NCBI GenBank assembly: GCA_025060015.1
Contig: JANXDB010000066.1
Span: forward strand, 8,635-72,634
Direction of reading: 5' to 3'
DNA length: 64,000 nt
Origin: Caldimicrobium sp.
GTDB lineage: Bacteria > Desulfobacterota > Thermodesulfobacteria > Thermodesulfobacteriales > Thermodesulfobacteriaceae
The notes beneath the pieces are model-generated. The model saw nothing but the letters and a program-made list of their open reading frames with translations, was not told where the DNA came from and did not search any database. Shown here in pieces: positions 9,804 through 64,000 of the stretch; positions within the stretch are counted from its first letter, which is position 1, and the number at the start of each line of letters is the position of its first letter. The position numbers and the translations under genes are program-made.

Positions 9804-11774
9804 CTATCTTATAAAAATATAGATAAGATATATAACTACTCCCAAAAGAATGAACCAATTATAGTAATTGACAATTCCGCTATGCAATTTTCTAAACAGG
9901 CTTGCACTGAAGGCCGTTGTCTTTGCTGAGCCATTTACAGTGTGATCTATTACAAAGCTGTCGAGTACGAGGTTCACCACAGTTCTTGCTAACCAAAGGG
10001 TGGGCACTACAAAAACCCTATGATAAAGCTCATCAAAATACCATTTTCTATAGAGGAAATTGTAGATGACTTTAAACTTATAGGAAAAAAATACCTCTAA
10101 GGCTGGCTTCTTTACATATACCAAATAGGCAATCCCTATTCCCATAAGGCCAGCTACGATAGAAAGCACCATCAAAAGATACTCTACGGCATGATCCACA
10201 GGTAGCAGTTTAGGATGGCCCAACACTTGTTCTAGAAATCTCTGAAAATGAGCTCCACCACCAAGGGCCTCTGGAATACCAAGCCAACCAGAGAAAATGG
10301 CACCAAAGGATATTATAATCAGTGGAATGGTCATCACCTTTGGAGATTCATGGGGGTAATGTCCATGTAAGGCCTCTACTCCTTTGAATTCACCGAAAAA
10401 GGCTTTAAAGAAGATCCTGAAGGTGTAAAAGGCAGTCATACCAGCAACTAAAAGACCCACAAACCAGACCAACTTTCCCCAAGGATATTGAGAAAAATAG
10501 GCATAGACCAAGATCTCATCTTTACTAAAAAAACCAGCAAAGCCTGGAATTCCAGCGATGGAGAGACTGGCTATCAAAAAAGTCCAGAAGGTTATAGGCA
10601 TGAACCTTTTTAATCCACCCATGATCCTTATATCATTGGGATCAGAGGCATGATGAAGAGCATGGATAATACTTCCTGCACCCAAAAATAGAAGGGCTTT
10701 AAAGTAGGCATGGGTGAAGAGATGAAACATCCCCACAGCGAAAGCCCCGACTCCACAGGCCATGAACATATAGCCAAGCTGCGAGAGGGTTGAATAGGCA
10801 ACAACTCTCTTGATGTCAAACTGGGTGGGAGCAATGGTTGCAGCCATGAAACAGGTGATCAGACCTACTAGGGCAACCATAGCCATGGCATGGGGGCTAA
10901 GCTCAAAGAGAGGGTGGAGCCTTGAGACCATAAAAACACCTGCTGTTACCATAGTAGCAGCATGTATCAGTGCAGAGACAGGTGTGGGGCCTTCCATGGC
11001 ATCGGGAAGCCAGGTGTGTAAAGGCACCTGGGCACTTTTCCCCATGGCACCGCAAAATAGTAAGAAGGAAATCAAGAAGGGAAGATGCACCTCATAACTT
11101 CCTATATTTATGTAAGTCTGAGCAATCTGTGGAAGCCTTGGAAAGATCTCATGGTAATAAAGAGTGCCAAGATAGTAAAAAACTGCAAATATCCCCAAAG
11201 CAAAGCCAAAATCACCAATTCTGTTGATGATAAAGGCCTTTTTAGCAGCATCGCTTGCACTTTTCTTTTCATACCAAAACCCAATCAGTAGATAGGAACA
11301 GAGGCCAACACCCTCCCATCCTAAGTACAACTGAATAAGATTGTTTGAAAGTACAAGAATAAGCATGAAAAAGGTAAATAGGGAGATGTATGAGAAAAAG
11401 CGATAGTATCCCGGATCCCCCTTCATATAGCCGATGGAGTAAACATGTATGAGAAAGGAAAGAGAGGTAACCATGCAGAGCATCATAACTGATAGGGGAT
11501 CAACTAGGAAACCAAGCCCTACCTTTAGACTTCCTACCACCATCCATTGGTAAAGATCAAACTCGTAGATCTTCCCGGAAAGAACATCCACGAGTAATTT
11601 CAAAGATATTAAAAAGCTTAAGAGAAGTGCAGACACTGGTAAGATATAGGGTTTTTCACGAAGATATCTCTTACCAAAGATGAGTGTTATAACACTTGCT
11701 AAAAGAGGTAGAAAAGGCACTAAGAATACACTTAAGTTAAAGCTCCTAACCACTTCAAAGGATACACCTTCCAT
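9804..11774 (-). CDS. nuoL: Complex I subunit L
   Basis: GKSAQVPLHTWLPDAMEGPTPVSALIHAATMV. Confidence 0.95.
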   Translation of the reverse strand: MEGVSFEVVRSFNLSVFLVPFLPLLASVITLIFGKRYLREKPYILPVSALLLSFLISLKLLVDVLSGKIYEFDLYQWMVVGSLKVGLGFLVDPLSVMMLCMVTSLSFLIHVYSIGYMKGDPGYYRFFSYISLFTFFMLILVLSNNLIQLYLGWEGVGLCSYLLIGFWYEKKSASDAAKKAFIINRIGDFGFALGIFAVFYYLGTLYYHEIFPRLPQIAQTYINIGSYEVHLPFLISFLLFCGAMGKSAQVPLHTWLPDAMEGPTPVSALIHAATMVTAGVFMVSRLHPLFELSPHAMAMVALVGLITCFMAATIAPTQFDIKRVVAYSTLSQLGYMFMACGVGAFAVGMFHLFTHAYFKALLFLGAGSIIHALHHASDPNDIRIMGGLKRFMPITFWTFLIASLSIAGIPGFAGFFSKDEILVYAYFSQYPWGKLVWFVGLLVAGMTAFYTFRIFFKAFFGEFKGVEALHGHYPHESPKVMTIPLIIISFGAIFSGWLGIPEALGGGAHFQRFLEQVLGHPKLLPVDHAVEYLLMVLSIVAGLMGIGIAYLVYVKKPALEVFFSYKFKVIYNFLYRKWYFDELYHRVFVVPTLWLARTVVNLVLDSFVIDHTVNGSAKTTAFSASLFRKLHSGIVNYYNWFILLGVVIYLIYIFIR

Positions 11775-11778
11775 CTTC

Positions 11779-12081
11779 TTAACCTCGGAAATAATTTATC
11801 TCATCGGCATAGACCTTTCTGAGTTTCCTATAAAGTAAAACCACCAAGGTTAGTCCCACTCCCGCTTCAGCTGCAGCCAAGGCTATAAGAAAAAAGACAA
11901 TAATATAGCCCTGCACATCCTTTGTGTAGTGAGAAATACTGGCAAAAAGGATCATCAGGGCATTCATCATTATCTCAAAGGAGACAAGTAAAATGATGAG
12001 ATTTCTCCTAAATAAAACTCCTATAAGGCCGATACAAAAGAGTAGTAGAGTTAAAAGAACATAATATTCAAAGGGAATCAC
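11779..12081 (-). CDS. nuoK: Complex I subunit K
   Basis: RRNLI...EIMMN...AAAEAGVGL. GTG at 12081 preferred over the TTG at 12087 because of GGAGG spacing. Confidence 0.92.
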   Translation of the reverse strand: MIPFEYYVLLTLLLFCIGLIGVLFRRNLIILLVSFEIMMNALMILFASISHYTKDVQGYIIVFFLIALAAAEAGVGLTLVVLLYRKLRKVYADEINYFRG

Positions 12082-12598
12082 CTTCAACCTCCTTTAGCTT
12101 TCTAAGCAAAAAAACAGCCCCCAAAACCACAACCAAGAGCAATACCCCAATGAGCTCAAATTGAAAGAGATAATGAGTAAAGAGGTAGCGTGCAATCCAC
12201 CACAGATTGGTGCCCTGAGAAAGGTCATAGTGGAGATTAGCCTTAAAATGAGGTGAAAGGGCTGTGAGAAAGGCTAAAGACTTAAAGAAGAAAAAGGCAA
12301 AGAATAACAATATCAACAAGCCAAGAGAGCTCCTCTTTACAAATACCCTCCATCTCTCTTCCATCCTGAGATTGATCATGTAAACCACAAAGAGAAAAAG
12401 GACTAAAACAGCCCCGGCGTAGACTATAATTTGAACAGCTGCTAAGAACTCTGACCCCAGGGTATAAAGCAAAAAGGCCTGGTGTATGATTAGAACTAAA
12501 ACCCAGAGCACCGCATGCACAGGATTTTTTGATAAAACCGCAAGAAGTCCTGGTATGCACATACCCAAAGCTAAATACAGAAAAACAAGCAAATCCAT
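12068..12598 (-). CDS. nuoJ: Complex I subunit J
   Basis: KNPVHAVLW, QIIVYAGAVLVLFLFVVYM, FELIGVLLL. Confidence 0.92.
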   Translation of the reverse strand: MDLLVFLYLALGMCIPGLLAVLSKNPVHAVLWVLVLIIHQAFLLYTLGSEFLAAVQIIVYAGAVLVLFLFVVYMINLRMEERWRVFVKRSSLGLLILLFFAFFFFKSLAFLTALSPHFKANLHYDLSQGTNLWWIARYLFTHYLFQFELIGVLLLVVVLGAVFLLRKLKEVEGDSL

Positions 12599-12602
12599 AG
12601 AG

Positions 12603-13148
12603 CTATACTCCTGTGAAGGTTCTCTTTCTAATAGGTAGGATCTTTTCTGGAATACCCCTTGGTTTCCAAAAGGGATTCAGGTATGGTCTTTTCTGAGTGG
12701 CGATAAACTCATCCCAGTTTTGAAGAAGTCTCTCTTTGTCAAAGTAAACCTCATCCCTACTGAAGCCTAAGTACTCAAAGAACTCAGTTAATACTACAGC
12801 ATTAACCGGACAAACCTCTTCACAATAACCACAGTAAACACATCTCAGTGCCTCTATGTCGTATCTTGTTATCTTCCTTTTCTTTGCCTCTTTATCCGCT
12901 TCGTATTCGATGTATATACACCTTGAGGGACAAACTTTGACACACCTTAGGCAGGCTATACAAAAGGTGTCTCCGCTTTGAGGATCCCTAACCAAGGCAT
13001 GTCGTCCTCTGAACCCAGGCTCTGGCTTAACCTTATCCTTTTCCGGATACTGAATGGTTACAGGTCTGTCAAAAAGAAGCTTCCTTAAAGTAAGGGCCAA
13101 GCCCTTAAGTATCTCGATAAGAAGAACCTTTTTAAGAAGAGACATCAT
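12603..13148 (-). CDS. nuoI: Complex I subunit I (2x[4Fe-4S])
   Basis: TIQYP, CIACLRCVKVCP, CVYCGYCEEVCP. Confidence 0.95.
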   Translation of the reverse strand: MMSLLKKVLLIEILKGLALTLRKLLFDRPVTIQYPEKDKVKPEPGFRGRHALVRDPQSGDTFCIACLRCVKVCPSRCIYIEYEADKEAKKRKITRYDIEALRCVYCGYCEEVCPVNAVVLTEFFEYLGFSRDEVYFDKERLLQNWDEFIATQKRPYLNPFWKPRGIPEKILPIRKRTFTGV

Positions 13149-13155
13149 AATCCCC

Positions 13156-14151
13156 CTAAAGCCATAACTTAAAAAGGGCTGTGAGAAATAGATTAGCCAA
13201 ACTTAGAGGTATTAAAATTTTCCACCCTAGACCCATCAACTGATCATAACGATAGCGCGGCAAGGTTGCTCTAACCCAAATATAGAAAAACAATAACAGA
13301 TACAGCTTTAACAAAAACCAGAAAAAGGGAAGGCCAGGGATTTCAAAGGGACCAAGGTAACCACCTAAAAAGCAGGTTGCCGCTAAGCCAGACATTATAA
13401 CCATACCAAAATATTCCGCCAAATAGAAAAGGGCAAATCTGATTCCGCTGTACTCCACAAAATAACCTGCCACAAGCTCAGTCTCCGCTTCAGGAAGATC
13501 AAAGGGAACCCTGTTGGTCTCTGCTATAGCCGAAACCATAAAAATAAAGAAGGCTATAATTTGGGGAAATACAAAGGCTTTAAAGGGACTTTCTGCCTGT
13601 GCCCTGACAATTTCTTGAAGATTAAAGGACCCTGCCATAAGGACCACAGAGAGTAAAGCCAAGGACATGGCAATTTCGTAACTGATAACCTGGGCACTGG
13701 CTCTTAGGGCCCCAAGAAAGGCATATCTTGAATTGGATGCCCATCCAGAGAGAATAACCCCGTATGCACTAAGAGAACTCAAGGCTAAAATAAAAAGTAA
13801 ACCAACGTTGAGATTACTTAGGACGAATTTATCCCAGAGGGGAATAAAGGCAAGTCCTGAAGCACCGCAAACCAGGGCAATAAGGGGAGCTATTAAAAAC
13901 ACAGGCCTATCGACTGCCGATGGGATAATATCCTCCTTGTGAAGCAGTTTCAACACATCAGCAATAGGCTGAAGTAATCCCCTAGGACCTACTCTATTTG
14001 GTCCAAGCCTCTGTTGCATCCTAGCTATGATTTTTCTTTCCACATAGGTAAGGTAGGCAACATGGAGAAGGGCTAAGAGGAGAAGCACCAGGTATATAAT
14101 AAGCATAATGACGAAGGCTGGCAATAAAGATAAATCCATCTCCCCCTCCAA
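13156..14151 (-). CDS. nuoH: Complex I subunit H
   Basis: RLGPNRVG, AETNRVPFDLPEAETELVAG, PRYRYDQLM. Confidence 0.96.
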   Translation of the reverse strand: MEGEMDLSLLPAFVIMLIIYLVLLLLALLHVAYLTYVERKIIARMQQRLGPNRVGPRGLLQPIADVLKLLHKEDIIPSAVDRPVFLIAPLIALVCGASGLAFIPLWDKFVLSNLNVGLLFILALSSLSAYGVILSGWASNSRYAFLGALRASAQVISYEIAMSLALLSVVLMAGSFNLQEIVRAQAESPFKAFVFPQIIAFFIFMVSAIAETNRVPFDLPEAETELVAGYFVEYSGIRFALFYLAEYFGMVIMSGLAATCFLGGYLGPFEIPGLPFFWFLLKLYLLLFFYIWVRATLPRYRYDQLMGLGWKILIPLSLANLFLTALFKLWL

Positions 14152-14169
14152 GAGGTTAAAAACTAAAAC

Positions 14170-15402
14170 CTATCTATCGCAATCCCCTAAGACCACATCC
14201 AAGGTCCCAATGATGGCAATGAGGTCTGCTATCATATGCCCCTTTGTTAATTCAGGTATAGCGGAGATATGCACAAAAGAGGGCATTCTGAGCCTAAGGC
14301 GCCAGGGTCTGTTTGAGCCATCGCTCACCACATAAACTGCAAGTTCTCCTTTGGGAGATTCAATACTTGCAAAGGCCTCACCCACAGGAACGACGGAAAC
14401 TTCCCTTCCTGTAAAGATAAAACCTCTCTTGGGATGAGGTTTGGGCTCAGGCTCCCTTACCCTTTCAGGAATAAGCAAATCCGGAGAGTCTTCCGCTAAG
14501 ACCGGTTCCCCCTCTGTCTCCTTCAGCTTATCTAAACATTGCCTGATGATTTTATTCGATTGTCTCATCTCTATCATTCTCACTCTGTATCTGTCGTAGG
14601 TGTCTCCTTTTTCCCCCACGGGCACTTCAAATTCCACCTCATCATAGGCATCGTAGGGTCTGAATTTCCTCACATCATATGGAATCCCTGAACCCCTTAA
14701 AACAGGGCCTGTTAACCCCAAGTTAATAGCCTCCTCTGGTGTAACAACTGCTATATCTTTAGTGCGTTTAAGCCAGATCCTATTTACATCTATTAGCGTC
14801 TCGTATTCAGTGATGAGATGGGGAAACTCTTCAGTAAATTTATAGAGATCTTCTACTATATCCACGGTAAAATCCAATCTTACTCCACCTATCCGGACAT
14901 AGCTATGAGTTAGCCTTGCACCACAGATCTTTTCAAAGATATTTAAAAGCCTTTCACGATCTCTAAAACAGTAGAGAAAGACCGTCATAGCCCCAATGTC
15001 AAGGGCATGGGTGGCAAGCCAGAGTAAATGACTGGAAATTCTAGCCATCTCTCCAACTATGGTTCTAAGTAGCCTTGCCCTCCTTGGAACCTTTAGATTA
15101 AATAGTTTTTCGAAGGCAAGAGCAAAGACTATGTTGTTGGCAACCGAGGCTATGTAATCCAAACGATCGCTCAGCACAATAGTTTGATTGTAATTCAAGT
15201 TCTCAGCAAGCTTTTCTACACCTCTATGAAGATATCCTACCACGGGATCACATCTCAAAATGGTCTCTCCGTCAAGCTCCAAGACCAAGCGCAGGACACC
15301 GTGAGTTGAAGGATGCTGAGGCCCCAGATTCAGATAAAAGGGCTCGACGATGGCTTCAGAAGAATTCTTTTTGGCTGTTATCTCAATAAGTGGAGAGCTC
15401 AT
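14170..15402 (-). CDS. nuoD: Complex I subunit D
   Basis: NLGPQHPSTHGVLRL, GYLHRGVEK, RLDY, ends GDCDR. Confidence 0.96.
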   Translation of the reverse strand: MSSPLIEITAKKNSSEAIVEPFYLNLGPQHPSTHGVLRLVLELDGETILRCDPVVGYLHRGVEKLAENLNYNQTIVLSDRLDYIASVANNIVFALAFEKLFNLKVPRRARLLRTIVGEMARISSHLLWLATHALDIGAMTVFLYCFRDRERLLNIFEKICGARLTHSYVRIGGVRLDFTVDIVEDLYKFTEEFPHLITEYETLIDVNRIWLKRTKDIAVVTPEEAINLGLTGPVLRGSGIPYDVRKFRPYDAYDEVEFEVPVGEKGDTYDRYRVRMIEMRQSNKIIRQCLDKLKETEGEPVLAEDSPDLLIPERVREPEPKPHPKRGFIFTGREVSVVPVGEAFASIESPKGELAVYVVSDGSNRPWRLRLRMPSFVHISAIPELTKGHMIADLIAIIGTLDVVLGDCDR

Positions 15403-46125: not shown

Positions 46126-49100
46126 TTATCCATTTAAACTATTGATAACTAAATCTTTTAGCCTAACACAAATTTCTTGCCAATCTCTCTCTTGCCTCTC
46201 CACACTGTCCATAAAGTCCTCCAATTCTCTGGTAAACTCTTCGGATATGTATTGGAAAAATCTCTGAGAAAGATGATGGTAAACCTTTTTCCCGAGATTT
46301 GTGGGCACGAGGCTTCCATTTTTAAGCTCATATACATAATAGCGCTGCAAAAGGGTTGAGACAATTTCGGCATAGGTTGAGGGTCTTCCCAGGCCTCTCT
46401 TTTTCATCTCCTGTATGAGACTTCCTTGATTAAAAAGAAAGACTCGAGGGATCTTGTGAAGTTCAATCTTTTCCGGTTTAAGGTCCTCTTTCCATTTGAA
46501 AAGCGGAGGCGATTTCCATATTAGATTAAAGCTATCTTTAAGGATGGCAAGATTTAGGTGTTCTTCCCATGTATGAGAGGGCACTTGGAAATTAAAGATT
46601 CCTTTTTTAAGCTTCATTGGTGCACATTGACTAGCCATAAATCTTCTGAATATCAAATCGTATATCCTCAAAGAGTCTTTGGTATTTTTAAAGGTAAGCA
46701 AACCGTGAGCCAATCTTATCTTTAGCTCACTAATATCCCAGGGATGAGTTGGTCTAATGCCTTCATGGGCCCCAACTTTTGACCACTCTCGGGGATAAAA
46801 TATCTCCAAACCTAAGTTTTTTTCTATGTAAGGTTTAGCTACCTGATATCTTCCAACCTCTGAGATACGTGTTGAATCAGTGCGATGATAGGTAATAAGT
46901 CCAAGTTCAAAGAGCTCTTGAAGCAAGTCCATGGTATGAGAGGTTGAAAAACGAAAATTAACATAGGCCTCTTCTAAGATAGTATCCGTGGTATATGGTG
47001 GAGGTGGATTAAGCTCTTCCTCGGTTTCCCCTAAAAGAGTAACCCTAAGCTGAGGCATCTCCTCCATTAGCCTCTTTGCCCTATCCTCCTCCTCGAAATC
47101 AAGGCTAAAGGGAAGCTCTCCCAGGGTGAAACCGATACGGAACCTGTAGGTTTTGGCCTCCTCTGCGCGCTTTATAACCCAGCCTAAAACAGGCGTCTGA
47201 ACACGTCCTGCTGAAAGGGTCCTCTTTCCAAAGGTCTTCCATAGCTCCCTTGATAGAGAAAAACCTACCCATCTATCCGCTACCCTTCTTGCTAGTTGAG
47301 CCTTGACCTTGGCTAGGTTTATCTCTCCAGCCTGCTCCAGGGCCTGTTTAAAGGCCCTTGGAGTTATCTCATGAAACTCTAATCTCTTTATGTTACTCTG
47401 AAAAGGTCTAAGATTGATAAAAAGGTCGTAGGCAATCTTTTCACCCTCAGAATCAGGGTCAGAGGCTATGAAGGTCTCCGTAGAACAAAAGGCAAGGGAT
47501 CTTAGGGCAGTGACGAGCTCGCCCTTGTCATAAACCTCTCCATGTTCGTTATGATCCTCATCGACAAACTCTTCTCCTCTATCCCTAAAGATCTTTATCG
47601 AGTCAAAGAGAGGATAAAAATTTCTCCCTTCTTCTAGCACTCCATATAGGCCCTCCTTTCTTGACAGATTGAAAAGATGGCCCATACAGGCACACACTGA
47701 AAGGAGCGTATTTTCCATAGGTATTTCATAAACCCATAGATTCTTGATTCTCCTTTTAGATGGTTTACCGAAGAAACCAGCAATGGTCTTTGCCTTATGA
47801 GGTGATTCTACGATTACCAGATAATTCCTAAAATCAAGATTTAAGTCCCTGAGATTTTTTCTCTCCTCTCTTACCATGTTATCTATTGACTTAAGATCCT
47901 CCTGCTCGACCTTTTGAAAATCGGGTTCTTCACCCAAAAAGACCTTCAACCTTCTCTTTAGGCTCCTGAAGGCTTTACCATTATCAATCAAAAGAATAGA
48001 AATACCAGGCAACAACCCCTTGGCAGTGAGTCTTGACACTCTGCCTGAGCCCTGGAGGTATACCTGGGCATTACCTAACACCACATAATACTTCCCACCG
48101 TCCACTTCAAGAAACACCTCATCGGAGGTCATCAATTTTTCTATGAAACTCTGATCCTGAAGCTTTAAGACTAGAAAATCTCTTATATTTTCAACCTTTT
48201 TCTTTAAACCCTCATACTGAGAGAGCGAGTCCTCCTTAAGCGTTAAATACTTCCGAAGATAATTGAGGTATGAGAGGGATTGTAGTCTCTCTTCATCTTC
48301 AAAGAGTGGCAAAAGGGAGAGCAGGAGATTATATAGAAAGGGAATAGCTAAAGGCAATTCAAAGGTATCACCGCTTTTTAACAAAGGAAAGCGATGTTTA
48401 GGAACTCCCAAAAAAAGTGCATATCTCAGGACCTCTGGAAGATCAATCCCTCTTAAAAGGGGATTACCAAGGTGCGCTAAACCCACCGCAATCTGAACCT
48501 CTTGACTTTCGAGACTATTAAGTAATTCTTCTTCATCAACCTCTAGGTAGGAAATCGCCTTTACACCATTTTCCGAGAAATATTTTGTGACCCTCTCAAC
48601 ACCCTCTCGTCCATAGGCTTCATCAACAAAAACCAGCCCGCCACCATTCAGGCTGTGAACTATGCTAAGGGCCTCTCTTGCCAAAGTGTCTAATTTGCAA
48701 TCTCCAACCTCTAAGTAAAGATCTTTGACTTTTCTCAGAGTGGATACGAAACGGGTAATCTCAAAGCCAAGAAGGTTCTGAAAAAGAACAGCACGACTGG
48801 TCTTTGGCTTAAGGGTAGCGGAGGATATAATGAGTCTTTTTTGGTTATTTTTGTGACGTTCCTTGATCTTTCCAAGTTGAAAAAAATCTTCCTCTTCCTT
48901 TTGTCTTTTCAAAGCCAAAGAGACTTCCTTTGGTGTAAATCCCAAAAGATAAAAGAGCTCCTCCACATTCTTACCGCTTTTTAGAAAAGAATCTACGTCA
49001 TCAACAAAGATGAGAGAGAAATCCAATTTCTTAAGAATGTCAAACTGGCGGTGAAAAAAGGCCTGGGTACAGACAAAAACATCAAAATCTCCCCTTTCAA

Positions 49101-49617
49101 GAAGGCCCTTTTCTTTGGCTGAACCTGTGTATGAGAGGATCTTTTTACTCTTTATGAAATCCTTGGTGGAGATCTCCTTTAATCTTTGCAATCGTTCAGT
49201 GAGATGAGAGACAAGGACCTTAGTTGGAACCAGTATCAAGGTCTTTTCGGCGTTTAAAAGTGCGGCAAGAAGGCCAAAGGTCGTTTTCCCTGTTCCTGTG
49301 GGGGCAACAATAGCAAAGGATTCATTAAGATAAAACCTTTTTGCCCAACCTATCTGGAGTGAGGTGGGAGAGGTTCCCACCATCTCTTTAAAAACCTCAT
49401 TGAAAATGGCTACCCTCTCCTCTACTCTGGCAAAATTTTTCAGATCCTTAAGTCTTTTTCTGAGGGCAAGGGTTTTCACAACCTCCGTAAAGGGCATTGA
49501 AGTGGTGGGTATAAGTTTTTCTGGCAGACATTTTATGCATGGCAGTCCTCGAGCTAGTCTCTCATCAGAGATAATTCCTCCGCAATTGTGGCAGCCCTTT
49601 GCTAAATAGAAAAGCAT
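46126..49617 (-). CDS. rgy: Reverse gyrase
   Basis: N-terminal CHNC...CIKC Zn finger, APTGTGKTT, DDVD helicase-like domain, TOPRIM IVESPHKA, SAGRVQTP, active-site ITYHRTDS. Confidence 0.97.
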   Translation of the reverse strand: MLFYLAKGCHNCGGIISDERLARGLPCIKCLPEKLIPTTSMPFTEVVKTLALRKRLKDLKNFARVEERVAIFNEVFKEMVGTSPTSLQIGWAKRFYLNESFAIVAPTGTGKTTFGLLAALLNAEKTLILVPTKVLVSHLTERLQRLKEISTKDFIKSKKILSYTGSAKEKGLLERGDFDVFVCTQAFFHRQFDILKKLDFSLIFVDDVDSFLKSGKNVEELFYLLGFTPKEVSLALKRQKEEEDFFQLGKIKERHKNNQKRLIISSATLKPKTSRAVLFQNLLGFEITRFVSTLRKVKDLYLEVGDCKLDTLAREALSIVHSLNGGGLVFVDEAYGREGVERVTKYFSENGVKAISYLEVDEEELLNSLESQEVQIAVGLAHLGNPLLRGIDLPEVLRYALFLGVPKHRFPLLKSGDTFELPLAIPFLYNLLLSLLPLFEDEERLQSLSYLNYLRKYLTLKEDSLSQYEGLKKKVENIRDFLVLKLQDQSFIEKLMTSDEVFLEVDGGKYYVVLGNAQVYLQGSGRVSRLTAKGLLPGISILLIDNGKAFRSLKRRLKVFLGEEPDFQKVEQEDLKSIDNMVREERKNLRDLNLDFRNYLVIVESPHKAKTIAGFFGKPSKRRIKNLWVYEIPMENTLLSVCACMGHLFNLSRKEGLYGVLEEGRNFYPLFDSIKIFRDRGEEFVDEDHNEHGEVYDKGELVTALRSLAFCSTETFIASDPDSEGEKIAYDLFINLRPFQSNIKRLEFHEITPRAFKQALEQAGEINLAKVKAQLARRVADRWVGFSLSRELWKTFGKRTLSAGRVQTPVLGWVIKRAEEAKTYRFRIGFTLGELPFSLDFEEEDRAKRLMEEMPQLRVTLLGETEEELNPPPPYTTDTILEEAYVNFRFSTSHTMDLLQELFELGLITYHRTDSTRISEVGRYQVAKPYIEKNLGLEIFYPREWSKVGAHEGIRPTHPWDISELKIRLAHGLLTFKNTKDSLRIYDLIFRRFMASQCAPMKLKKGIFNFQVPSHTWEEHLNLAILKDSFNLIWKSPPLFKWKEDLKPEKIELHKIPRVFLFNQGSLIQEMKKRGLGRPSTYAEIVSTLLQRYYVYELKNGSLVPTNLGKKVYHHLSQRFFQYISEEFTRELEDFMDSVERQERDWQEICVRLKDLVINSLNG

Positions 49618-56602: not shown

Positions 56603-57364
56603 TTGATAAAAGTTATACTTTTGTTTAGTTTCACAACCCTTCTTATCTCCTGTATAGCTCAACAGCAATATTACATCGATAAAACAACATCACATAAAGA
56701 GGTTGCCAGACTTTACATAGCTGAGGGCCGCTACACTGATGCCCTAAAGGAGCTGGAGCTAGCCAAAAAAACAATCGAATGTGATGCAGAAACCTTTAAT
56801 CTTTTGGCTACAGTTTACATGGCAAAAAAGGATTTTTCCAAGGCTGAGGAGGCATTGGATGAGGCTTTAAGGAGAAATCCAAACTATTCTGAAGCTTACA
56901 CAAACTATGGAACCCTGAGAATGCTTCAAGGAAGATATCAGGAGGCCATTCATTATTTTGAAAAGGCACTTGCCAATCCTTTTTATCTCAATGCCCACCT
57001 GGCTTATACCAACATGGGCTGGGCTTATTATCAGTTGGGTGATAAAGAGAAGGCCCTAAACTCCCTCTTTTCTGCCTTAAAGGAAAATGCTCGTGCCACC
57101 AAGTCTCTGATATACATCGCCCTTATACACCTAAATGAGGGAGATTTGACCTCCGCTGAGTTTTATCTAAAAAGGGTTCTCAAAACCGATAGAGGCTCTG
57201 CTGAGGCCCGCTATCATCTTGGAGAAGTCTTTCTAAGACAGGGAAGACACGAACTGGCAAAGGAAATATGGGAATCGGTGGTACAGCTTAATCCAGGTTC
57301 AGAATGGGGTAATCTTGCGGAAGATAGGCTATATCTTCTTAAAAGAATGGAACTATCAAGATAA
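56603..57364 (+). CDS. TPR lipoprotein (PilF/PilW-like)
   Basis: Lipobox LISC, tandem TPRs, LANPFY. Confidence 0.7.
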   Translation: MIKVILLFSFTTLLISCIAQQQYYIDKTTSHKEVARLYIAEGRYTDALKELELAKKTIECDAETFNLLATVYMAKKDFSKAEEALDEALRRNPNYSEAYTNYGTLRMLQGRYQEAIHYFEKALANPFYLNAHLAYTNMGWAYYQLGDKEKALNSLFSALKENARATKSLIYIALIHLNEGDLTSAEFYLKRVLKTDRGSAEARYHLGEVFLRQGRHELAKEIWESVVQLNPGSEWGNLAEDRLYLLKRMELSR

Positions 57365-58978
57365 CCCTTTAAGTTTATCTCCCCTTTCTATATAAGCTTC
57401 CATTCTGTTCAATGCTTTAATCAGAGCCTTTAAGCTGGCAATTACTATATCACCGTCTCTTCCAAGACCTGCCGATCTCCTGCCTGATTCATCTTCCAAA
57501 ATCACTCCACAGACACCCTCAGCTGAGGTTCCCCCAGAAAGAGCATCTATGTGAAAGTCAATCAACCTCAGAGGTTTCTTCCCCTCCTCCCTGGAAAAGG
57601 TGTATCCTAAAGCTTCTGCTACAGCTTTATAGGCTGCATCAATGGGACCAACCCCAAGACCAATGGACACTCGTCTGCCTTCCTTCTTATCCTCAATTTC
57701 CACCTGAGCAATGGGCTTTAGTGATCCGCTTAAAACGCTTATAACCTGGGAGGCAAGGAGCTGATATCTATATTGGTCCTCAAGGAGGAGATCTAACACT
57801 ATTCCCTCGAGATAGGCATCATCCACCTGCCTAAGGATATCCTTCACCTCTTCTCGATATCGTTCAAAAACCCTGTCTAAAAGGTCCTTTTCTAAATGCC
57901 AACCAAGACTCTCAAGTTTAAATTTAATAGCATGTCTGCCTGAGTGTTTACCAAGAACAATGGCTGAACCTGTCCATCCAATATCCTCTGGATTAATGAT
58001 CTCATAGGTTGTCCTCTCACAAAGCACTCCATGCTGATGTATTCCTGACTCATGAGCAAAGGCATTGGCTCCAACTATAGCTTTGTTTGGTTGCACTACC
58101 ATACCTGTGTACTGTGATACCATTTGACTAACAGGAACTATCTTCTTGGTATCAATGTCCACCACCGGTGAATAACCTAATTTGGCCTTGAAAAAATCCT
58201 CTCGCGTCCTCAAAGTCATTATAATCTCTTCCAGAGCAGCATTACCTGCTCTTTCGCCAATCCCGTTGATGGTGCCCTCTACCTGTGTTGCTCCTGCTAA
58301 GATTGCGGAAAGAGAATTGGCTACAGCTAACCCTAAATCATTGTGGCAGTGCACAGAAATTCTCAAAGCACCTCCCTTTAATTCCTCTTCGTACCCCTCC
58401 TTTACTAACTTCTCTATGAGAAACTTTATTAAATCATAATATTCCTGGGGAACAGTATAACCTACGGTGTCAGGAATGTTTATTGTTGTGGCACCAGCTT
58501 TAACTACCTCTAAAACTACTTTGGCCAGAAATTCCCTATCACTTCTGGTTGCATCCTCTGCAGAGAACTCTACCTCAGGCGCCAAAGTTTTAGCAAAGGC
58601 CACGGCAGATCTTGCTAATTCCAGGACCTCATCCTTTGTTTTCCTGAGCTTATATTTCATGTGTATATCTGAGGTTGCAATGAAGGTGTGTATCCTTGGA
58701 TTCTCTGCTACTCTAAGGGCTTCCCAGGCAACCTCGATGTCTTTCTTATTTGCCCTCGCTAAAGCAGCAATTGTAGCGCCTTTCAACTCCTTTGCCAAAG
58801 CCTGCACTGCTTGAAAATCTCCTGGGGATGTTATGGGAAAACCAGCCTCTATCACATCTATACCAAGATCCACAAGTGCTAGACCAATCTCTATCTTCTG
58901 TTTCAGATTCAAAGATACACCAGGAGACTGTTCTCCGTCTCTTAAAGTAGTATCAAAAAAGACTATCTTTGAATTCAA
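57356..58978 (-). CDS. leuA: 2-isopropylmalate synthase
   Basis: [36 protein letters not shown], regulatory GVGPIDA; TTG start. Confidence 0.93.
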
Positions 58979-60368: not shown

Positions 60369-61676
60369 TTACTCAGTGATGGTGTATTTGTCGCCTACAA
60401 ATTCCACATTTGCCATGAGCACCTTTACATTTTCAAAGCCGAGATTTTTGAGAGCATTGTACCCCATTTCTGCCCTCACACCTGTTGCACAGTGCACATA
60501 TATGGGTTTGTCCTTGGGCAGCGTGTGGGCTTTCTGAGGTATATCGTCAACAGAGATATTTATGGCTCCCTTAAAATGACCTCTCTTGAATTCCTCTGGA
60601 GTTCTTACATCAACTATAACAGCAGATCCATCTTTAAGAGCCTTTTCAAAATCAGCTATGCTAACCTCAAAGGGTCTATAGGTTCTGACATAATGAATCT
60701 GTGTAGGAATAGGACCCTTCTTTACCTCTAAACCCTTAGCAGCCCATTCCTGTAAACCACCTGAATAGACTGTGACATTTGGATAGCCAAAGTCTTTTAT
60801 GATCTTAACTGCCTCAGCTAAATCCTCCTTTTTATCAGAGTAAATCACAATAGGAGCCTTGGTGTATGTGGGAAACTTTTCTTCAGCCTTAGACAGATCT
60901 TTCATAGGAATATTCACAGCTTTGGGAATATATCCTGTTTTAGCAATGGTTTGAGGATCTCTCAAATCGATTAGCACGATGTTTTCCTTCTGAATGTAGT
61001 CTGCTGTAGATTCTGTGTAGTATCCGGCCTTTTTCCATCCGGGCTCACCATCCATGTAAACTTTTACATTTTTAAAGCCCCATTTGACGGCAAGTCCTGC
61101 CGCCTTAGGACTCATAGTTCAGGTGGGCCCTCCACAATAGAAAATGACCAACTTGTCTTTGGCTATGTTTGCCAGTGTTTTTTCTCCCTCTTTTTCCATT
61201 ACAGTTACAGGGATGCTAATTGCCGTAGGTATATATGAGGCATGATATCTTGGCGCAGGCCTTGAATCAATTAAAACATAGGTTCCAGGGGATTCAAAAA
61301 CGAGCTTGGCCAATTCGGAGGTTTTGATCTCAGTAACTCCTTGAGGTAACTCAGCAATAGCTAATTTAATTAACTTTGCGATATTTTTACCATCAACAAC
61401 TACATACTTTACCTCTACCTCTTGACCCTGAATCTCCCTTATCTTCTTGGGATCAATGTGCTGAAAAACCGTCTTGTCATCGTATTTAATATTGATCTTT
61501 TTACCTGCATGATCCACTGTGATTGTCTGAATAGTTACCGCTACCGCAGATACCTGTCCCTTGATGGACTGCTCTTGAGCCATTGTTGATGTCACCCAAA
61601 GAGCAGACTGCAGAAGGGTCAAAATTAGAAATAATAAAAGAGCCCTCATACTTCGGAGACGAAACAGCTCCATCAT
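60369..61676 (-). CDS. Exported triple-rhodanese sulfurtransferase, predicted selenoprotein (435 aa, Sec186). Joins track ORFs 61119..61676 and 60369..61115
   Basis: TAT TGT GGA GGG CCC ACC TGA ACT ATG AGT CCT = YCGGPT-U-TMSP, in frame. Signal peptide, beta domain, rhodanese 1 (CxxxxU), rhodanese 2 (no Cys), rhodanese 3 (HCATGVRA). SECIS-like hairpin follows the UGA. Confidence 0.82.
61086..61121 (-). promoter_or_regulatory. Bacterial SECIS element candidate
   Basis: UGA + 14 nt + GGCGGCA-GGACU-UGCCGUC; the apical GCA-GGAC resembles the E. coli fdhF GCA-GGUC-UGC (recalled). Confidence 0.72.
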
Positions 61677-61718
61677 ACTCTACACCTCCATATAAATTTT
61701 ATATAAATTCTTAAAAAA

Positions 61719-61746
61719 ATATTAACAATTTTTTATAAGCTGTCAA
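61719..61746 (-). promoter_or_regulatory. sigma70-type promoter for the rhodanese gene
   Basis: TTGACA-16 nt-TAATAT in AT-rich DNA; RBS GGAGGTG. Confidence 0.5.
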
Positions 61747-61856
61747 CATTTAAATAGTTTAGATTTTTCTAAAGTAAAGGACTATTTCGATATTTTGAAA
61801 AAGTTTTTAATTTAATATTTTAATTTTTGAAGATTTTTATATTTTAAGGGATTATA

Positions 61857-61941
61857 TGCCGAGGGCGGGAGTCGAACCCGCACGGGGGCGAACCCCAGTG
61901 GATTTTGAGTCCACCGCGTCTGCCAGTTCCGCCACCTCGGC
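61857..61941 (-). tRNA. tRNA-Leu (CAA)
   Basis: GCCGAGG acceptor stem, GTGGA-CTCAAAA-TCCAC anticodon arm, variable arm, GGTTCGACTCC; CCA not encoded. Confidence 0.96.
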
Positions 61942-61981
61942 TTATTATTAGTTTAATATCAAACATCAGCTTTACAAGGGG

Positions 61982-63211
61982 TTAATACTCTAAGATCCTC
62001 TTTTCCTCATGAACCAGGAACTCCATCCCAGATTTTACATGGTATTTTACCCTGGTTATAAGTTCAACTCTTCTCACGTCCCGAGGAAAGATGGCGTAAA
62101 ATCTCTCAGTGGTAACCTCTCGTGGAGGTAGAGAAAAATCAACGAGATCCTTTACCTCAAAAGAGACAAACCTTCTATTTCCATACCAGTCAAGTCCAAT
62201 TTCAAAATACTCTTTGTCGCCTTTCCACACCACCTTTCCTTTTTCATCAAGGGCAACGAGCTCAAGTATTACCTTAGATGTCCAATAACAACCATCAGGA
62301 ATGCGATGGCCAGCGTTATTAATTAGATCTACGGTTATTACCGCAGCAGGATTTCTCTTGGTGTGATCAGTGAGAGGTGCAAAGGGCTTGTATTCTATTA
62401 CATTCCTAACCTGCACGTTAAGCCCGATCCCTTCTTTTAGCATGTCTACCACATAGGTTCCCGGAAAGGTATGCCCACGATTTTTAGCCCTCATATGACA
62501 ATCCTGACAGGAGGATTGACCACCCATAGCCACATAGTGATCTCTATAGCTTTGGGCAATGGTGCTACAAAAAATTGGCTCACCGTCGGGAGCAAGGTAT
62601 GCTCCGTGACACTGCATACAAAAATTGGAATTTCCTATGTATGGATGTCTCTTAACGGCGTGAAAAGGCGACTGACCTTTACCTTTTGTGCCATACATTA
62701 CATTAGGTTCTGGCCTCTCCGGTGGATGAAGGGCCTTCATGTTGTGGCAAATATAACAGGTAACGGTAAGCCTTTCCAATAGATTTTTTGCCTTGCTATC
62801 TTTTTTCTCATAGTAATCAATCACCGCCTGGGCCACCTCTCTCATGAATTTCTCTGAAGCCTGCTCTAGCTGTGGTGCATGACAAACGAAACACTTCATA
62901 AGCTCTGCTTTGTAGCCTCCAGGTTTCTTGGCCCGAGCACTTCTCTCAGGATCATTAGGAACGGCATTTTTTATTTAGGAATAAATTATGTCGATGGAAT
63001 GCAAAATGCTCTGAGAATGCATAGAAACTTTCCACTGCTCGTAGACATCTCCATGACAACCTGCACACACATCTGCAGGCGGATAAAGTTGCTCAAGTTC
63101 ATCAATGCTATCCACAAGCTTACCCTTTTCAATACTAACTGGCGCTGAACTTACTTGGCCAAGTAAAAGAACTATCAATAAGAGTACGATACCAAAGGTC
63201 CACTTTTGCAT
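61982..63211 (-). pseudogene. Pentaheme cytochrome c, ExtKL/MccSep-like (Cys variant), interrupted by one in-frame TAA at 62975-62977
   Basis: Track ORFs 62975..63211 and 61982..62899 are in the same frame and joined by 25 open codons. Signal peptide; CAGCH, CFVCH, CYICH, CMQCH, CQDCH; AGHRIPDGC motif. Confidence 0.72.
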
Positions 63212-63499
63212 AGGCCCTCCTGATATTAAGTTATATTATTAAATTATGTAAGGTCATTTATATTATAACCTATTTTGATCAAGAGATAAATAGATTCCTT
63301 AATTTGTCAATACAAACTAAAATTAATAGTGAGGGTTTTCTTCTCATGGGGTGCGACCACTTTTCTTTGGTTTACATCAACTGGGTGGCATGGTAGTTCA
63401 TCTGGAAACTTAGTATTGATAAACCTTTTTTAGCTTTTTTTTAAGTCTCAATCGGCAAATTTGAGTAGATTGCACCTTGACTCAGAGAATTCCAAGTAA

Positions 63500-63516
63500 C
63501 GCACCTGACAGGTGCG
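63500..63516. promoter_or_regulatory. Perfect GC-rich palindrome, candidate operator
   Basis: CGCACCTG-A-CAGGTGCG in the divergent cytochrome/iorA intergenic region. Confidence 0.35.
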
Positions 63517-63596
63517 AAAAAAGGGGATTTCCATTCTCTTTATTTTAAAATTATTTCTGTTATATTTAATAAAAATTCATTCTGAGGGGTAAGTGT

Positions 63597-64000
63597 ATGA
63601 GCAAGGTTCTAATGCTGGGAACAGATGCCCTTGCAAGGGGAGCAATAGAGGCTGGCATCTCCTACGCTGCCTCCTATCCCGGAACACCTGCTACGCAGAT
63701 CTTGGAATATGTTGCCAAAAACAGCTCTGTTCCCTGCGAATGGTCAATAAACGAAAAAGTTGCCTTTGAGGTAGCTTATGGTGTTAGTCTTACAGGTAGA
63801 AGGGTCCTTTGCTCTATGAAACATGTTGGGCTTAATGTAGCTGCTGATCCCTTTATGACTTCCGCTTATCTCGGGGTAAGGGGTGGCTTTGTCTTGGCTA
63901 TTGGTGATGATCCAGGTGCCTATTCCTCACAGAATGAACAGGATTCTCGTTTTTATGCGCGTTTTGCCAAAATTCCCTGCCTTGAACCCTACGATGGAGA
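63597..64000 (+). CDS. iorA: Indolepyruvate:ferredoxin oxidoreductase alpha subunit, N-terminal part (runs off the right edge)
   Basis: My translation: MSKVLMLGTDALARGAIEAG...SYPGTPATQI...NEKVAFEVA...MKHVGLNVAADP...DDPGAYSSQNEQDSR. Confidence 0.92.
   Translation, partial: MSKVLMLGTDALARGAIEAGISYAASYPGTPATQILEYVAKNSSVPCEWSINEKVAFEVAYGVSLTGRRVLCSMKHVGLNVAADPFMTSAYLGVRGGFVLAIGDDPGAYSSQNEQDSRFYARFAKIPCLEPYDG

Follow-up and report, generated by a model that had tools for sequence, protein, structure and literature searches.

The cytochrome and rhodanese genes at positions 60,369 to 63,211 of the window (the whole stretch of 64,000 nucleotides that was analysed, part of a 110,998-bp NCBI contig which probably comes from a metagenome-assembled genome) seem to be two separately transcribed genes of periplasmic sulfur metabolism that are neighbours by chance in Caldimicrobium, rather than a dedicated two-gene system; we put the probability of this reading at roughly 60%. 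It is preferred because the two genes are co-localised at none of 66 and none of 88 further loci, because the rhodanese gene has a promoter-like site of its own, because the identity to a sister genome is 94% for one gene versus 73% for the other, and because the rhodanese has stayed intact.

The locus and the interrupted cytochrome gene

The features of the pair and of the cytochrome are as follows.

61982..63211, minus strand: gene for a Cys-type ExtKL/MccSep pentaheme c-type cytochrome, 409 codons plus stop
63143..63211, minus strand: predicted Sec signal peptide of the cytochrome (MQKWTFGIVLLLIVLLLGQVSSA), read by eye
62975..62977, minus strand: in-frame TAA at codon 79 of the cytochrome (Tyr or Phe in relatives, alignment A1)
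62567..62569, minus strand: codon of Cys215, equivalent to C239 of Geobacter sulfurreducens MccSep (HMMER alignment to 9wt9; invariant in A1)
62288..62290, minus strand: TGT codon of Cys308, at the catalytic Sec/Cys site (U325 of G. sulfurreducens; alignment to 9wt9, A1)
61857..61941, minus strand: tRNA-Leu(CAA) between the two genes (ARAGORN; Rfam RF00005, 57.3 bits)
61719..61746, minus strand: sigma-70-like promoter upstream of the rhodanese gene (TTGACA, 16 nt, TAATAT, with TG before the -10; 10/12, a consensus match only)
60369..61676, minus strand: gene for an exported Sec-rhodanese, 435 codons plus stop

Along the minus strand the order is cytochrome, tRNA-Leu(CAA), rhodanese, and the cytochrome gene has the tRNA, the rhodanese gene and a divergent gene for a TPP enzyme as its neighbours. 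All features described in the initial annotation were found in the sequence where it had placed them, including the same-strand pair with the tRNA in between. The porin gene that it reported missing beside the pair is absent from the rest of the window as well, and its sulfate-reduction, complex I and heme-maturation context is present (QmoA-like, AprA, AprB, Sat, NuoN/L/D and CcsB), but at 15-60 kb from the pair. Homologues of the DUF3373-type (ExtI porin-like) protein or of the small protein ExtJ were found nowhere in the 64-kb window, which also yielded no tRNA-Sec, and no sel gene is among the ORFs annotated there.

Read through its stop codon, the cytochrome scores 324.4 bits against the NCBIfam model NF040886 (ExtKL; cut-off 250) in an end-to-end alignment (residues 9-407 on profile positions 8-420 of 423), and it aligns to the solved MccSep structures 9wt8/9wt9 with an E-value of ~1e-39 (HMMER). 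Its five CxxCH motifs (C49/C52/H53, C107/C110/H111, C152/C155/H156, C198/C201/H202 and C235/C238/H239) are invariant among the relatives in alignment A1, and Cys215 occupies the position of the distal ligand of heme 2 in G. sulfurreducens MccSep, C239 (PMC13510729). At the catalytic site the family motif HRIPDG[U/C] reads HRIPDGC, which places the window cytochrome in the Cys minority, the corresponding codon being TGA in ~48-51 and TGC or TGT in 12 of 63 ExtKL loci. Judging from these alignments, the cytochrome is a Cys-type paralogue of the MccSep/ExtKL pentaheme polysulfide reductase. Both its ExtKL-type identity and its cysteine had been called correctly from the sequence, and experiments on the G. 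sulfurreducens enzyme have since (2025/26) shown that MccSep/ExtKL reduces polysulfide, in a family that is periplasmic (PMC13510729).

Compared to G. sulfurreducens MccSep (ExtKL, GSU2937-2936), with which it shares ~30-35% identity over the aligned region (estimated by eye from the 9wt8/9wt9 alignment), the window cytochrome has the same NF040886 family, five CxxCH motifs, heme-2 distal Cys, HxIPDG[U/C] motif, C-terminal domain and signal peptide, whereas its catalytic site carries Cys instead of Sec and its gene lies outside an extHIJKLMNOPQS cluster, alone next to a tRNA and interrupted by a nonsense codon. The metagenome-assembled genomes SKYB6 (loci L001 and L003) and GMQP.bins.21 (L002 and L004) each hold one Cys-type and one Sec-type ExtKL copy, and the Sec-type copy L003 adjoins a PhsA-like/NrfD/FeS operon.

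The frame is interrupted once only, by the TAA, which splits the 409 codons into ORFs of 78 and 305 amino acids. Because the signal peptide and heme 1 are thereby parted from hemes 2-5, the allele of the assembled strain cannot give a mature cytochrome. In the sister genome of Caldimicrobium sp. SKYB6 (L001) codon 79 is TAT. Four hot-spring metagenome runs, X1-X4, were compared at plus-strand position 62975 through assembled Logan contigs (as distinct from raw reads). The stop allele (T) occurs in X1, X3 and X4; in near-identical strains the Tyr allele (A) is the only one in X2 and accompanies the stop allele in X1 and X4. The depth is 19.4 for the T allele on an X4 contig without differences and 16.4 in X1, against 182 for the A allele in X2. 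An intact exported frame is consequently lacking in this assembly and in the T-allele contigs of X1, X3 and X4, and goes with the TAT allele in X2, X1, X4 and L001. It would fit a sequencing or assembly artefact, or a codon that is read through to give a functional cytochrome, that the window probably derives from a metagenome-assembled genome, that the same environments often carry the Tyr allele and that the gene is otherwise under purifying selection. Such an origin is nevertheless highly improbable, since the T-allele contigs come from three runs and two studies and are otherwise identical to the window, and since TAA is not known to act as a recoding signal in bacteria. The TAA reflects a genuine nonsense mutation (TAT to TAA) that is polymorphic, and the natural knockout that had been suspected recurs in independent runs. 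Populations of the same hot springs still contain the intact Tyr allele, so the loss is recent, a conclusion also supported by the dN/dS of 0.095 (dS 0.23) of the cytochrome relative to L001. The loss would probably be tolerated because the sister genomes also hold a Sec-type MccSep paralogue beside a Phs/Psr-like operon, which may make the Cys-type copy redundant; the near-inactivity of the U325C variant in G. sulfurreducens (PMC13510729) is in line with this.

A selenoprotein with three rhodanese domains

Within the rhodanese gene the following features were located.

61008..61343, minus strand: rhodanese domain 1, residues ~112-223 (profile and Pfam matches)
61134..61136, minus strand: codon of Cys181, the canonical catalytic position of domain 1 (nearly invariant in alignment A3)
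61119..61121, minus strand: TGA read as Sec186, the final position of the active-site loop in domain 1 and the start of UxxS (U186-T-M-S189)
61075..61113, minus strand: SECIS-like hairpin, fdhF-like, 21 nt downstream of the UGA
61086..61104, minus strand: apical stem of the hairpin (GGCGGCA/UGCCGUC) with loop GGACU
60693..61001, minus strand: rhodanese domain 2, residues ~226-328, active-site Cys absent (IVIYSDKKED)
60417..60665, minus strand: rhodanese domain 3, residues ~338-420, canonical loop HC396ATGVR401

The protein consists of a signal-peptide-like N-terminus (judged by eye), an N-terminal all-beta domain and three rhodanese domains (three PF00581 matches in Pfam), and the AlphaFold model of a 71%-identical Cys homologue (P0121; pLDDT 92.9) likewise shows three alpha/beta rhodanese domains after a beta domain. 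Domain 1, whose closest solved single domain is BH2092 (3nhv; 35% identity, rmsd 1.7 Å), has the active-site loop C181-G-G-P-T-U186, in which Cys181 partners Sec186 (C-x4-U). Domain 2 is presumably non-catalytic, and in domain 3 C396 is invariant and R401 nearly invariant across the family.

The sequence around the TGA at codon 186 is FYCGGPT-U-TMSPKAA. Full-length homologues have Cys at this column, shortened database entries begin just past the TGA, and of 88 family loci ~38-40 have TGA and ~48 have TGC or TGT at this codon. The hairpin folds with an MFE of -26.2 kcal/mol (z = -3.2) in the window; in 38 Sec-type homologues its four apical pairs are kept in 38/38, with compensatory changes at two pairs, and the loop, of general form GGNCU, is GGUCU in 25/38. 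The public annotation treats the TGA as a true stop between two proteins of 185 and 248 aa, which finds some backing in an ATG two codons past the TGA and in the entry of the 248-aa product as a separate protein in NCBI nr. There is next to no chance that this is right, given that the TGA lies inside a rhodanese active-site loop at a column where about half of the relatives have Cys, that the hairpin downstream is conserved with covariation, that its loop in Sec-type relatives encodes a Gly-Leu/Gln pair from GGUCUG/GGUCAG, and that the 248-aa product would be without a signal peptide and without half of domain 1. The TGA is, on the strength of its column and its fdhF-like SECIS, a genuine Sec codon, as was proposed at the outset from the letters alone, and the rhodanese, by its predicted export signal and domain matches, belongs as an intact, exported selenoprotein to a widespread family with three rhodanese domains.

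By motif and Pfam family the window protein can be assigned to the rhodanese-like selenoprotein 'form 1' (PF00581, UxxS; exemplar WP_010941598.1) that has been catalogued in the prokaryotic selenoproteome (PMC13188914), with which it has in common the UxxS, the Sec/Cys pair across homologues and a SECIS directly downstream. NCBIfam models stay below their cut-offs (NF041203, 79 bits versus 115; NF045694, TsoB, 77 versus 805). Residues 116-227 align to the rhodanese domain of TsoB, a rhodanese/DsbD fusion-like selenoprotein whose motif is listed as UxxxxU (PMC13188914) and probably sits, going by this alignment, in the loop equivalent to the C-x4-U of the window. Unlike TsoB, the window rhodanese has no DsbD-like membrane module and only one Sec, and scores far below the cut-off. 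With ExtH (GSU2940), the rhodanese-like lipoprotein of Geobacter whose pairing with ExtKL had been mentioned in the initial annotation and is indeed in the literature, it shares export, the rhodanese family and a place near an ExtKL gene, but it lacks a lipobox and has no ExtI or ExtJ genes next to it. ExtH itself was ruled out as its identity, as the ExtH model NF040901 does not match the window rhodanese at E <= 0.01; a Geobacteraceae relative of the rhodanese reaches 25 bits against a cut-off of 200.

Linkage and the case for a dedicated relay

Apart from the window, only the sister Caldimicrobium genome (L001) was seen to have the two genes adjacent, with the same tRNA between them. Measured as adjacency of loci, as distinct from genome-wide co-occurrence, the linkage is absent elsewhere: in species-representative genomes this rhodanese is within 10 kb of 0/66 other ExtKL/MccSep loci, a set retrieved by peptide patterns which missed the Geobacter clade of MccSep, and an ExtKL homologue accompanies 0/88 rhodanese-family loci. 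The next Cys-type relative of the cytochrome (L002, 65% identity) has no linked rhodanese either.

The two genes moreover differ in their history. In a sliding-window comparison the tract 61860..63200, comprising the cytochrome and the tRNA, is 91-99% identical to SKYB6, while its flanks fall to ~50% in the intergenic region and 73-75% in the rhodanese gene, and the upstream side is unalignable; therefore, the tract and the rhodanese gene must have different histories. Over the whole genes, nucleotide identity to L001 is 94% for the cytochrome versus 73% for the rhodanese, for which dS is saturated. The rhodanese is intact in every metagenome run, its TGA being unchanged in all four, while the in-frame stop of the cytochrome gene is polymorphic. 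In each family the Sec/Cys state switches often and independently.

The initial annotation had taken the pair for a minimal relay that captures S0 or polysulfide in the periplasm. On this model the Sec-rhodanese would be the capturing partner and would supply the Cys-type cytochrome, Sec on the carrier would make up for its absence from the enzyme, and sulfur reduction or disproportionation would begin at the pair. The gene identities, Sec/Cys calls and TAA of the annotation have stood, but the conserved two-gene module has not, since among the loci surveyed the synteny check that it called for finds the pair linked only in Caldimicrobium and the histories diverge, and the frequent, independent switching in both families leaves nothing special in a carrier with Sec beside a cytochrome with Cys. 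There is something to be said for a relay, as the genes are adjacent and on the same strand in two Caldimicrobium species, both products are predicted to be exported, and rhodanese-like genes cluster with extKL in 18 Desulfuromonadales regions. In addition, the authors who showed MccSep to be a polysulfide reductase allow for 'additional periplasmic sulfur-transfer components' and found the engineered U325C enzyme of G. sulfurreducens to be nearly inactive (PMC13510729), which means that a natural Cys-type enzyme might need help. Yet we regard a dedicated relay as unlikely, because the linkage is missing at all other loci of both kinds (L002 included), a tRNA gene and a promoter-like site separate the genes, the cytochrome and tRNA tract has a different and recent history, the rhodanese is kept where the cytochrome is knocked out and falls outside the ExtH family, and the Sec/Cys states are independent.

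Somewhat less probable again is that the rhodanese is a thiol/selenol oxidoreductase or a selenium- or tellurium-handling protein instead of a sulfur carrier, whose C-x4-U would cycle via a selenenylsulfide and reduce selenite, tellurite, tetrathionate or disulfides, or traffic selenium. The C-x4-U in one loop is in line with this, as are the fusion of the related UxxxxU protein TsoB to a DsbD-like redox module, the link of the Geobacter ext operon to selenite and tellurite reduction, the reduction of selenite by MccSep itself (PMC13510729), and the ArsR-type regulator and cation-efflux genes that adjoin the rhodanese in Comamonadaceae-type loci. Against it, domain 3 retains the canonical CxxGxR loop on which persulfides form, without variation in the family, the recurrent neighbours are sulfur-compound reductases (Otr-type and Phs/Psr-like), and no gene for a thioredoxin- or DsbD-like partner is found near the rhodanese in the window.

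A possible carrier for several reductases

Neighbourhoods were counted at the 30 rhodanese-family loci whose flanks extend for 3 kb or more on either side. Of these, 6/30 have an octaheme cytochrome (TIGR04315 tetrathionate-reductase type, 640 bits), 6/30 a DUF3373 outer-membrane protein and 5/30 a PhsA/PsrA-like enzyme. A gene of the Otr-type octaheme or the PhsA/PsrA-like kind, or both, is nearby in 11 of the 30, and a recognisable reductase is absent in 19. In the window, the sole candidate reductase beside the rhodanese is the broken MccSep gene. Since its relatives stand beside octaheme or Phs/Psr-like enzymes, the rhodanese is probably a general periplasmic sulfur carrier.

Under the preferred reading of two separate genes, zero-valent sulfur, polysulfide or selenium would be bound or activated on the C181-x4-U186 pair of domain 1, either in a mixed Se-Sn-S adduct or in the form of a selenenylsulfide, while domain 3 would carry a persulfide on C396. 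Any periplasmic reductase present may then receive sulfane sulfur from the rhodanese; in Caldimicrobium, either MccSep paralogue or the Phs/Psr-like enzyme would be a candidate. Sud of Wolinella succinogenes, a single-domain homodimer without Sec, is a periplasmic polysulfide-sulfur transferase that feeds PsrABC. The proposed analogy with Sud is functional and would lie in an exported rhodanese with a catalytic Cys whose relatives adjoin Phs/Psr-like operons, whereas the window protein differs in its extra beta domain, its three rhodanese domains, its C-x4-U loop and its Sec. The Aquifex rhodanese SbdP is also cited as a sulfur supplier.

More far-reaching, and decidedly doubtful, is the proposal that the exported C-x4-(U/C) family with three rhodanese domains is a general periplasmic carrier or activator of zero-valent sulfur and at the same time the entry point for S0 or polysulfide in sulfur-disproportionating Caldimicrobium. 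Its partners would come from three or more unrelated classes of sulfur-compound reductase (MccSep, Otr-type octaheme cytochromes and Phs/Psr molybdoenzymes), and a heme-motif paralogue that adjoins qmo-apr-sat could feed the oxidative branch. The segregating TAA and TAT alleles of the Cys-type MccSep would then show, as an experiment of nature, which reductive outlet is in use.

With the polysulfide reductase role of the MccSep family already published, little changes on the side of the cytochrome, and the rhodanese, too, fits a catalogued UxxS type. What is added is a segregating natural knockout of the Cys-type MccSep paralogue in hot-spring Caldimicrobium, which, combined with strain-resolved metagenomics, could show when this paralogue is dispensable. 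Furthermore, the Sec/Cys family with three rhodanese domains is widespread and repeatedly found next to different periplasmic sulfur-compound reductases, and with these recurrent neighbours it may reasonably be considered for the role of the periplasmic sulfur-transfer component allowed for in the MccSep study. The public annotation, which splits off the 248-aa C-terminal part of the rhodanese and a 78-aa N-terminal fragment of the cytochrome, needs correction.

The locus and its cytochrome

The initial annotation had proposed that a cytochrome and an exported rhodanese form a minimal periplasmic sulfur-relay module, with Sec on the carrier and Cys on the enzyme. The same-strand order of cytochrome, tRNA-Leu(CAA) and rhodanese that it described is indeed present:

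Features of the locus and its flanks
63211..61982, minus strand: cytochrome, a frame of 409 codons, of which codon 79 is the one in-frame TAA (62977..62975)
61941..61857, minus strand: tRNA-Leu(CAA) (ARAGORN and Rfam)
61676..60369, minus strand: rhodanese, a frame of 435 codons, of which codon 186 is the one in-frame TGA (61121..61119)
start at 63597, divergent: TPP-enzyme gene, upstream of the cytochrome
downstream of the rhodanese, on the opposite strand to it: YihY-family membrane protein gene
57356..58978, downstream of the rhodanese: leuA-like (2-isopropylmalate synthase) gene, by-eye reading only

Of the wider context that had been invoked (Sat/Apr/Qmo, system II heme maturation and complex I), the presence stands while membership in the locus does not: genes for QmoA-like, AprA, AprB, Sat, NuoN/L/D and CcsB are encoded in the window, at 15-60 kb from the locus, and are not part of it. 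A homologue search of the window returned no ExtI/DUF3373, ExtJ-like, Otr-type, cytochrome b or PsrA/NrfD homologues, in agreement with the earlier observation that no porin gene is adjacent. At the Rfam gathering threshold the window holds two tRNAs and nothing else, i.e. no curated SECIS or other RNA family. The ~380-bp non-coding spacer between the cytochrome and the divergent TPP-enzyme gene (63320..63560) likewise matches no Rfam family and bears no relation in sequence to the equivalent flank of L001, a locus of Caldimicrobium sp. SKYB6. A reverse gyrase gene (46126..49617, minus strand; TIGR01054, 1129 bits), being a (hyper)thermophile marker, is consistent with a hot-spring origin. Together with the AprA cluster it indicates a thermophilic Caldimicrobium.

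When the TAA is read through, the cytochrome, which has five CxxCH motifs, matches the ExtKL/MccSep model NF040886 over its full length (324 bits, cut-off 250), and it aligns to the solved MccSep of G. sulfurreducens (9wt8/9wt9) with an E-value of ~1e-39. ExtKL/MccSep has recently been identified as a pentaheme selenoenzyme that assembles as a tetramer; it reduces polysulfide, and S0 respiration depends on it (PMC13510729). The label multiheme polysulfide oxidoreductase was therefore correct, and already known, because this activity has been published for the family. Cys215 aligns with the heme-2 ligand C239 and Cys308 with the catalytic U325, which bears out the reading of Cys rather than Sec in the cytochrome. 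The U325C variant of MccSep has almost no activity, and Cys-type homologues are offshoots of Sec-type clades (PMC13510729). The codon at the catalytic site in 63 sampled ExtKL loci is TGA in ~48-51 and Cys in 12, and the window cytochrome falls in a small Cys-type group with L001 (95% amino-acid identity) and L002 of GMQP.bins.21 (65%).

SKYB6 has a second, Sec-type MccSep paralogue (L003, 9926..11143) convergent with a PhsA/PsrA-like, NrfD and 4Fe-4S operon (11184..15302), the GMQP.bins.21 MAG carries both a Cys-type (L002) and a Sec-type (L004) copy, and at L044 and L056 a pair of Sec-type MccSep-like genes stands no more than a few kb apart (tandem or nearby paralogues). The Cys-type genes of the magnetotactic Nitrospirota loci (L005-L012, L016, L017) form one clade.

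The nonsense codon of the cytochrome

Codon 79 encodes Tyr or Phe in relatives, and is TAT in L001. Mapping of Logan assembled contigs from four hot-spring metagenome runs (X1-X4) onto the cytochrome region revealed a single variable site near this codon, at plus-strand position 62975. The stop allele (T) occurs in X3, in X1 (depth 16.4) and in a 14.5-kb contig of X4 with zero differences from the window; X2 has only A (Tyr), at a depth of 182 and in contigs that differ from the window at one position, and A is also found in part of X1 and X4. The TAA allele, which occurs in three runs from two studies, is therefore real and segregates against the intact one, so that the natural knockout surmised earlier does exist. 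Over the tRNA-Leu region (61794..61983), contig depth rises 10- to 80-fold in X1-X4 with many loose ends on both sides, as expected where copies of this tRNA from numerous other organisms pile up.

The truncated N-terminal product retains the signal peptide and heme 1, and the downstream ORF of 305 aa is predicted to undergo neither export nor heme insertion, because it has no signal peptide. The dN/dS of the cytochrome relative to L001 is 0.095, and its loss is therefore recent.

The Sec-type rhodanese

The TGA of the rhodanese sits within the domain-1 active-site loop (FYC181-GGPT-U186-TMS), in a column that is Cys in full-length homologues, many database entries being fragments that start just past the site. 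Across 88 loci of the family the codon is TGA in ~38-40 and TGC/TGT in ~48, and in all four metagenome runs the TGA is unchanged. As no Rfam family matched, the SECIS was studied by folding and by a comparison of 38 distinct Sec-type sequences. The RNA 3' of the TGA forms a hairpin (-26.2 kcal/mol, z = -3.2), whose four apical base pairs form in 38/38 sequences, with compensatory changes (C-G, A-U, U-G) at two of the four. Its loop, which begins 21 nt past the UGA, reads GGUCU in 25 of the 38 and GGUCA in 6, the window and L001 having GGACU. The hairpin resembles the E. coli fdhF SECIS. Cys-type sequences yielded no consensus hairpin, and, from a by-eye reading of the list, the loop-encoded Gly-Leu/Gln marks the listed Sec-type proteins, most Cys-type proteins having other residues. 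Together, the Cys/TGA column and the SECIS-like hairpin with its compensatory changes uphold the assignment of Sec to the rhodanese.

NCBI nr holds the exact 248-aa C-terminal part of the rhodanese (60372..61115) and, separately, the 78-aa N-terminal fragment of the cytochrome (62978..63211); in the public record the Sec codon is thus taken for a stop, and a piece of the broken gene is annotated as a protein.

The UxxS motif corresponds to 'rhodanese-like selenoprotein form 1' of a selenoprotein catalogue, which also lists TsoB with a UxxxxU motif (PMC13188914); the latter would occupy a loop equivalent to that of domain 1. The three-domain architecture that had been described was recovered by Pfam and in the AlphaFold model of P0121, the closest full-length Cys homologue (71% identity, pLDDT 92.9), in which an N-terminal all-beta domain precedes the three rhodanese domains. 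Domain 2 has no catalytic Cys; the canonical loop of domain 3 (HC396ATGVR) is invariant. A PDB fold search gave generic multi-domain rhodaneses (1yt8, YnjE, EanB, SseA) and BH2092 for domain 1, with no function-specific match and no identification of the N-terminal beta domain. Over 25 residues this domain (61578..61343, residues ~34-112) has a short, weak match (E = 5e-5) to L073 7429..7740, a small 103-aa protein beside DUF3373 and rhodanese genes. The two may share a related domain; the other of two comparisons with ExtJ-like small proteins gave no alignment.

Relation between the two genes and possible role of the rhodanese

Linkage, tested as adjacency only, was surveyed in species-representative genomes, at 67 ExtKL loci with flanks of up to 10 kb per side (a pattern-based set that misses the Geobacter clade and its ext clusters). 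This rhodanese lies near ExtKL in L001 only, even at E <= 1, while murJ and pst genes follow the cytochrome in L002, the next Cys-type relative, and an ExtKL homologue occurs in 0/88 of the rhodanese-family loci. Within this survey the pair is adjacent in the window and L001 only, which argues against the proposed two-gene module. For the Geobacter clade the literature describes 18 extHIJKL regions with variable rhodanese-like genes; the rhodanese of the window does not match the ExtH model NF040901 and was rejected as an ExtH. Ahead of it lie the tRNA gene and an AT-rich spacer of 180 bp that contains a candidate promoter (TTGACA-16-TAATAT), and it is intact wherever the cytochrome is broken (X1, X3 and X4).

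The histories of the two genes also differ. Positions 63200..61860 (cytochrome and tRNA) are 91-99% identical to L001 (734..2088), with a dS of 0.23, versus 73-75% and a saturated dS for the rhodanese; downstream genes are ~70% identical and the upstream side is unalignable. Judging from these divergences, Caldimicrobium lineages have evidently swapped the cytochrome gene in recent times, by what looks like recombination or transfer next to the tRNA, where synteny breaks. Linkage, transcription, history, dispensability and the non-ExtH family of the rhodanese thus all argue against a module, and the evidence gives no support to a two-gene relay conserved as a unit, although the rhodanese may interact functionally with the cytochrome. 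The proposal that a Sec-type carrier makes up for a Cys-type enzyme was not retained, because it is based on one lineage and both families flip between Sec and Cys often.

Antisense-ORF artefacts aside, the 67 loci have no conserved MccSep neighbour; those present are lineage-specific, i.e. PAS kinases (19 loci), an ABC ATPase (16) and a YeeE/YedE-like membrane protein (12, most apparently magnetotactic Nitrospirota). L032, a Geobacteraceae MAG locus considered as an ext cluster, was rejected on inspection.

Relatives of the rhodanese have several kinds of neighbourhood. The Comamonadaceae-type order is an ArsR-type regulator, an octaheme cytochrome (TIGR04315 tetrathionate-reductase family, 640 bits), cytochrome b, a DUF3373 outer-membrane protein, a 103-106-aa protein and the rhodanese, and the Geobacteraceae-type order is DUF3373, a small protein, the rhodanese, PhsA/PsrA-like, NrfD and FeS. 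In Geomonas the gene before the rhodanese encodes a TonB-dependent receptor, and a Psr-like operon lies alongside; in another group the rhodanese is followed in turn by a sigma-54 activator, a multiheme cytochrome and a second rhodanese. Among 30 loci flanked by 3 kb or more on each side, the octaheme cytochrome was found in 6, DUF3373 in 6, PsrA-like in 5 and none of these in 19. The theme common to the recurring neighbours is the periplasmic reduction of sulfur compounds.

It would be most economical to regard the rhodanese as a carrier/activator of sulfane sulfur for whichever reductase is present, by functional analogy with Sud. Such a protein would be loaded at the C-x4-U/C pair in domain 1 and at C396 in domain 3. 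In SKYB6 the Sec-type MccSep and the PhsA-like/NrfD/FeS operon (L003) could serve as alternative acceptors, and because this sister MAG offers them, loss of the Cys-type cytochrome would be tolerable. The genus is known for sulfur disproportionation, but the present results link neither gene to that process.

The novelty of these findings is modest, as both proteins are members of known families and the biochemistry of the cytochrome is already published. New are the segregating natural knockout of a Cys-type MccSep, the sign of recent MccSep gene exchange between Caldimicrobium lineages, and a context survey that puts forward a Sec/Cys rhodanese family, so far uncharacterised, as a candidate for a general sulfur carrier of the periplasm.

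A paralogue of the rhodanese family (P0225; L071 8001..9359, JAVQUB010000007.1) in another Caldimicrobium MAG carries a CxxCH heme motif in its N-terminal part, and the loop of its domain 1 is shorter. Its gene directly adjoins qmoCBA-aprAB-sat, and as the window begins inside that qmo-apr-sat block, a counterpart would fall just before position 1.
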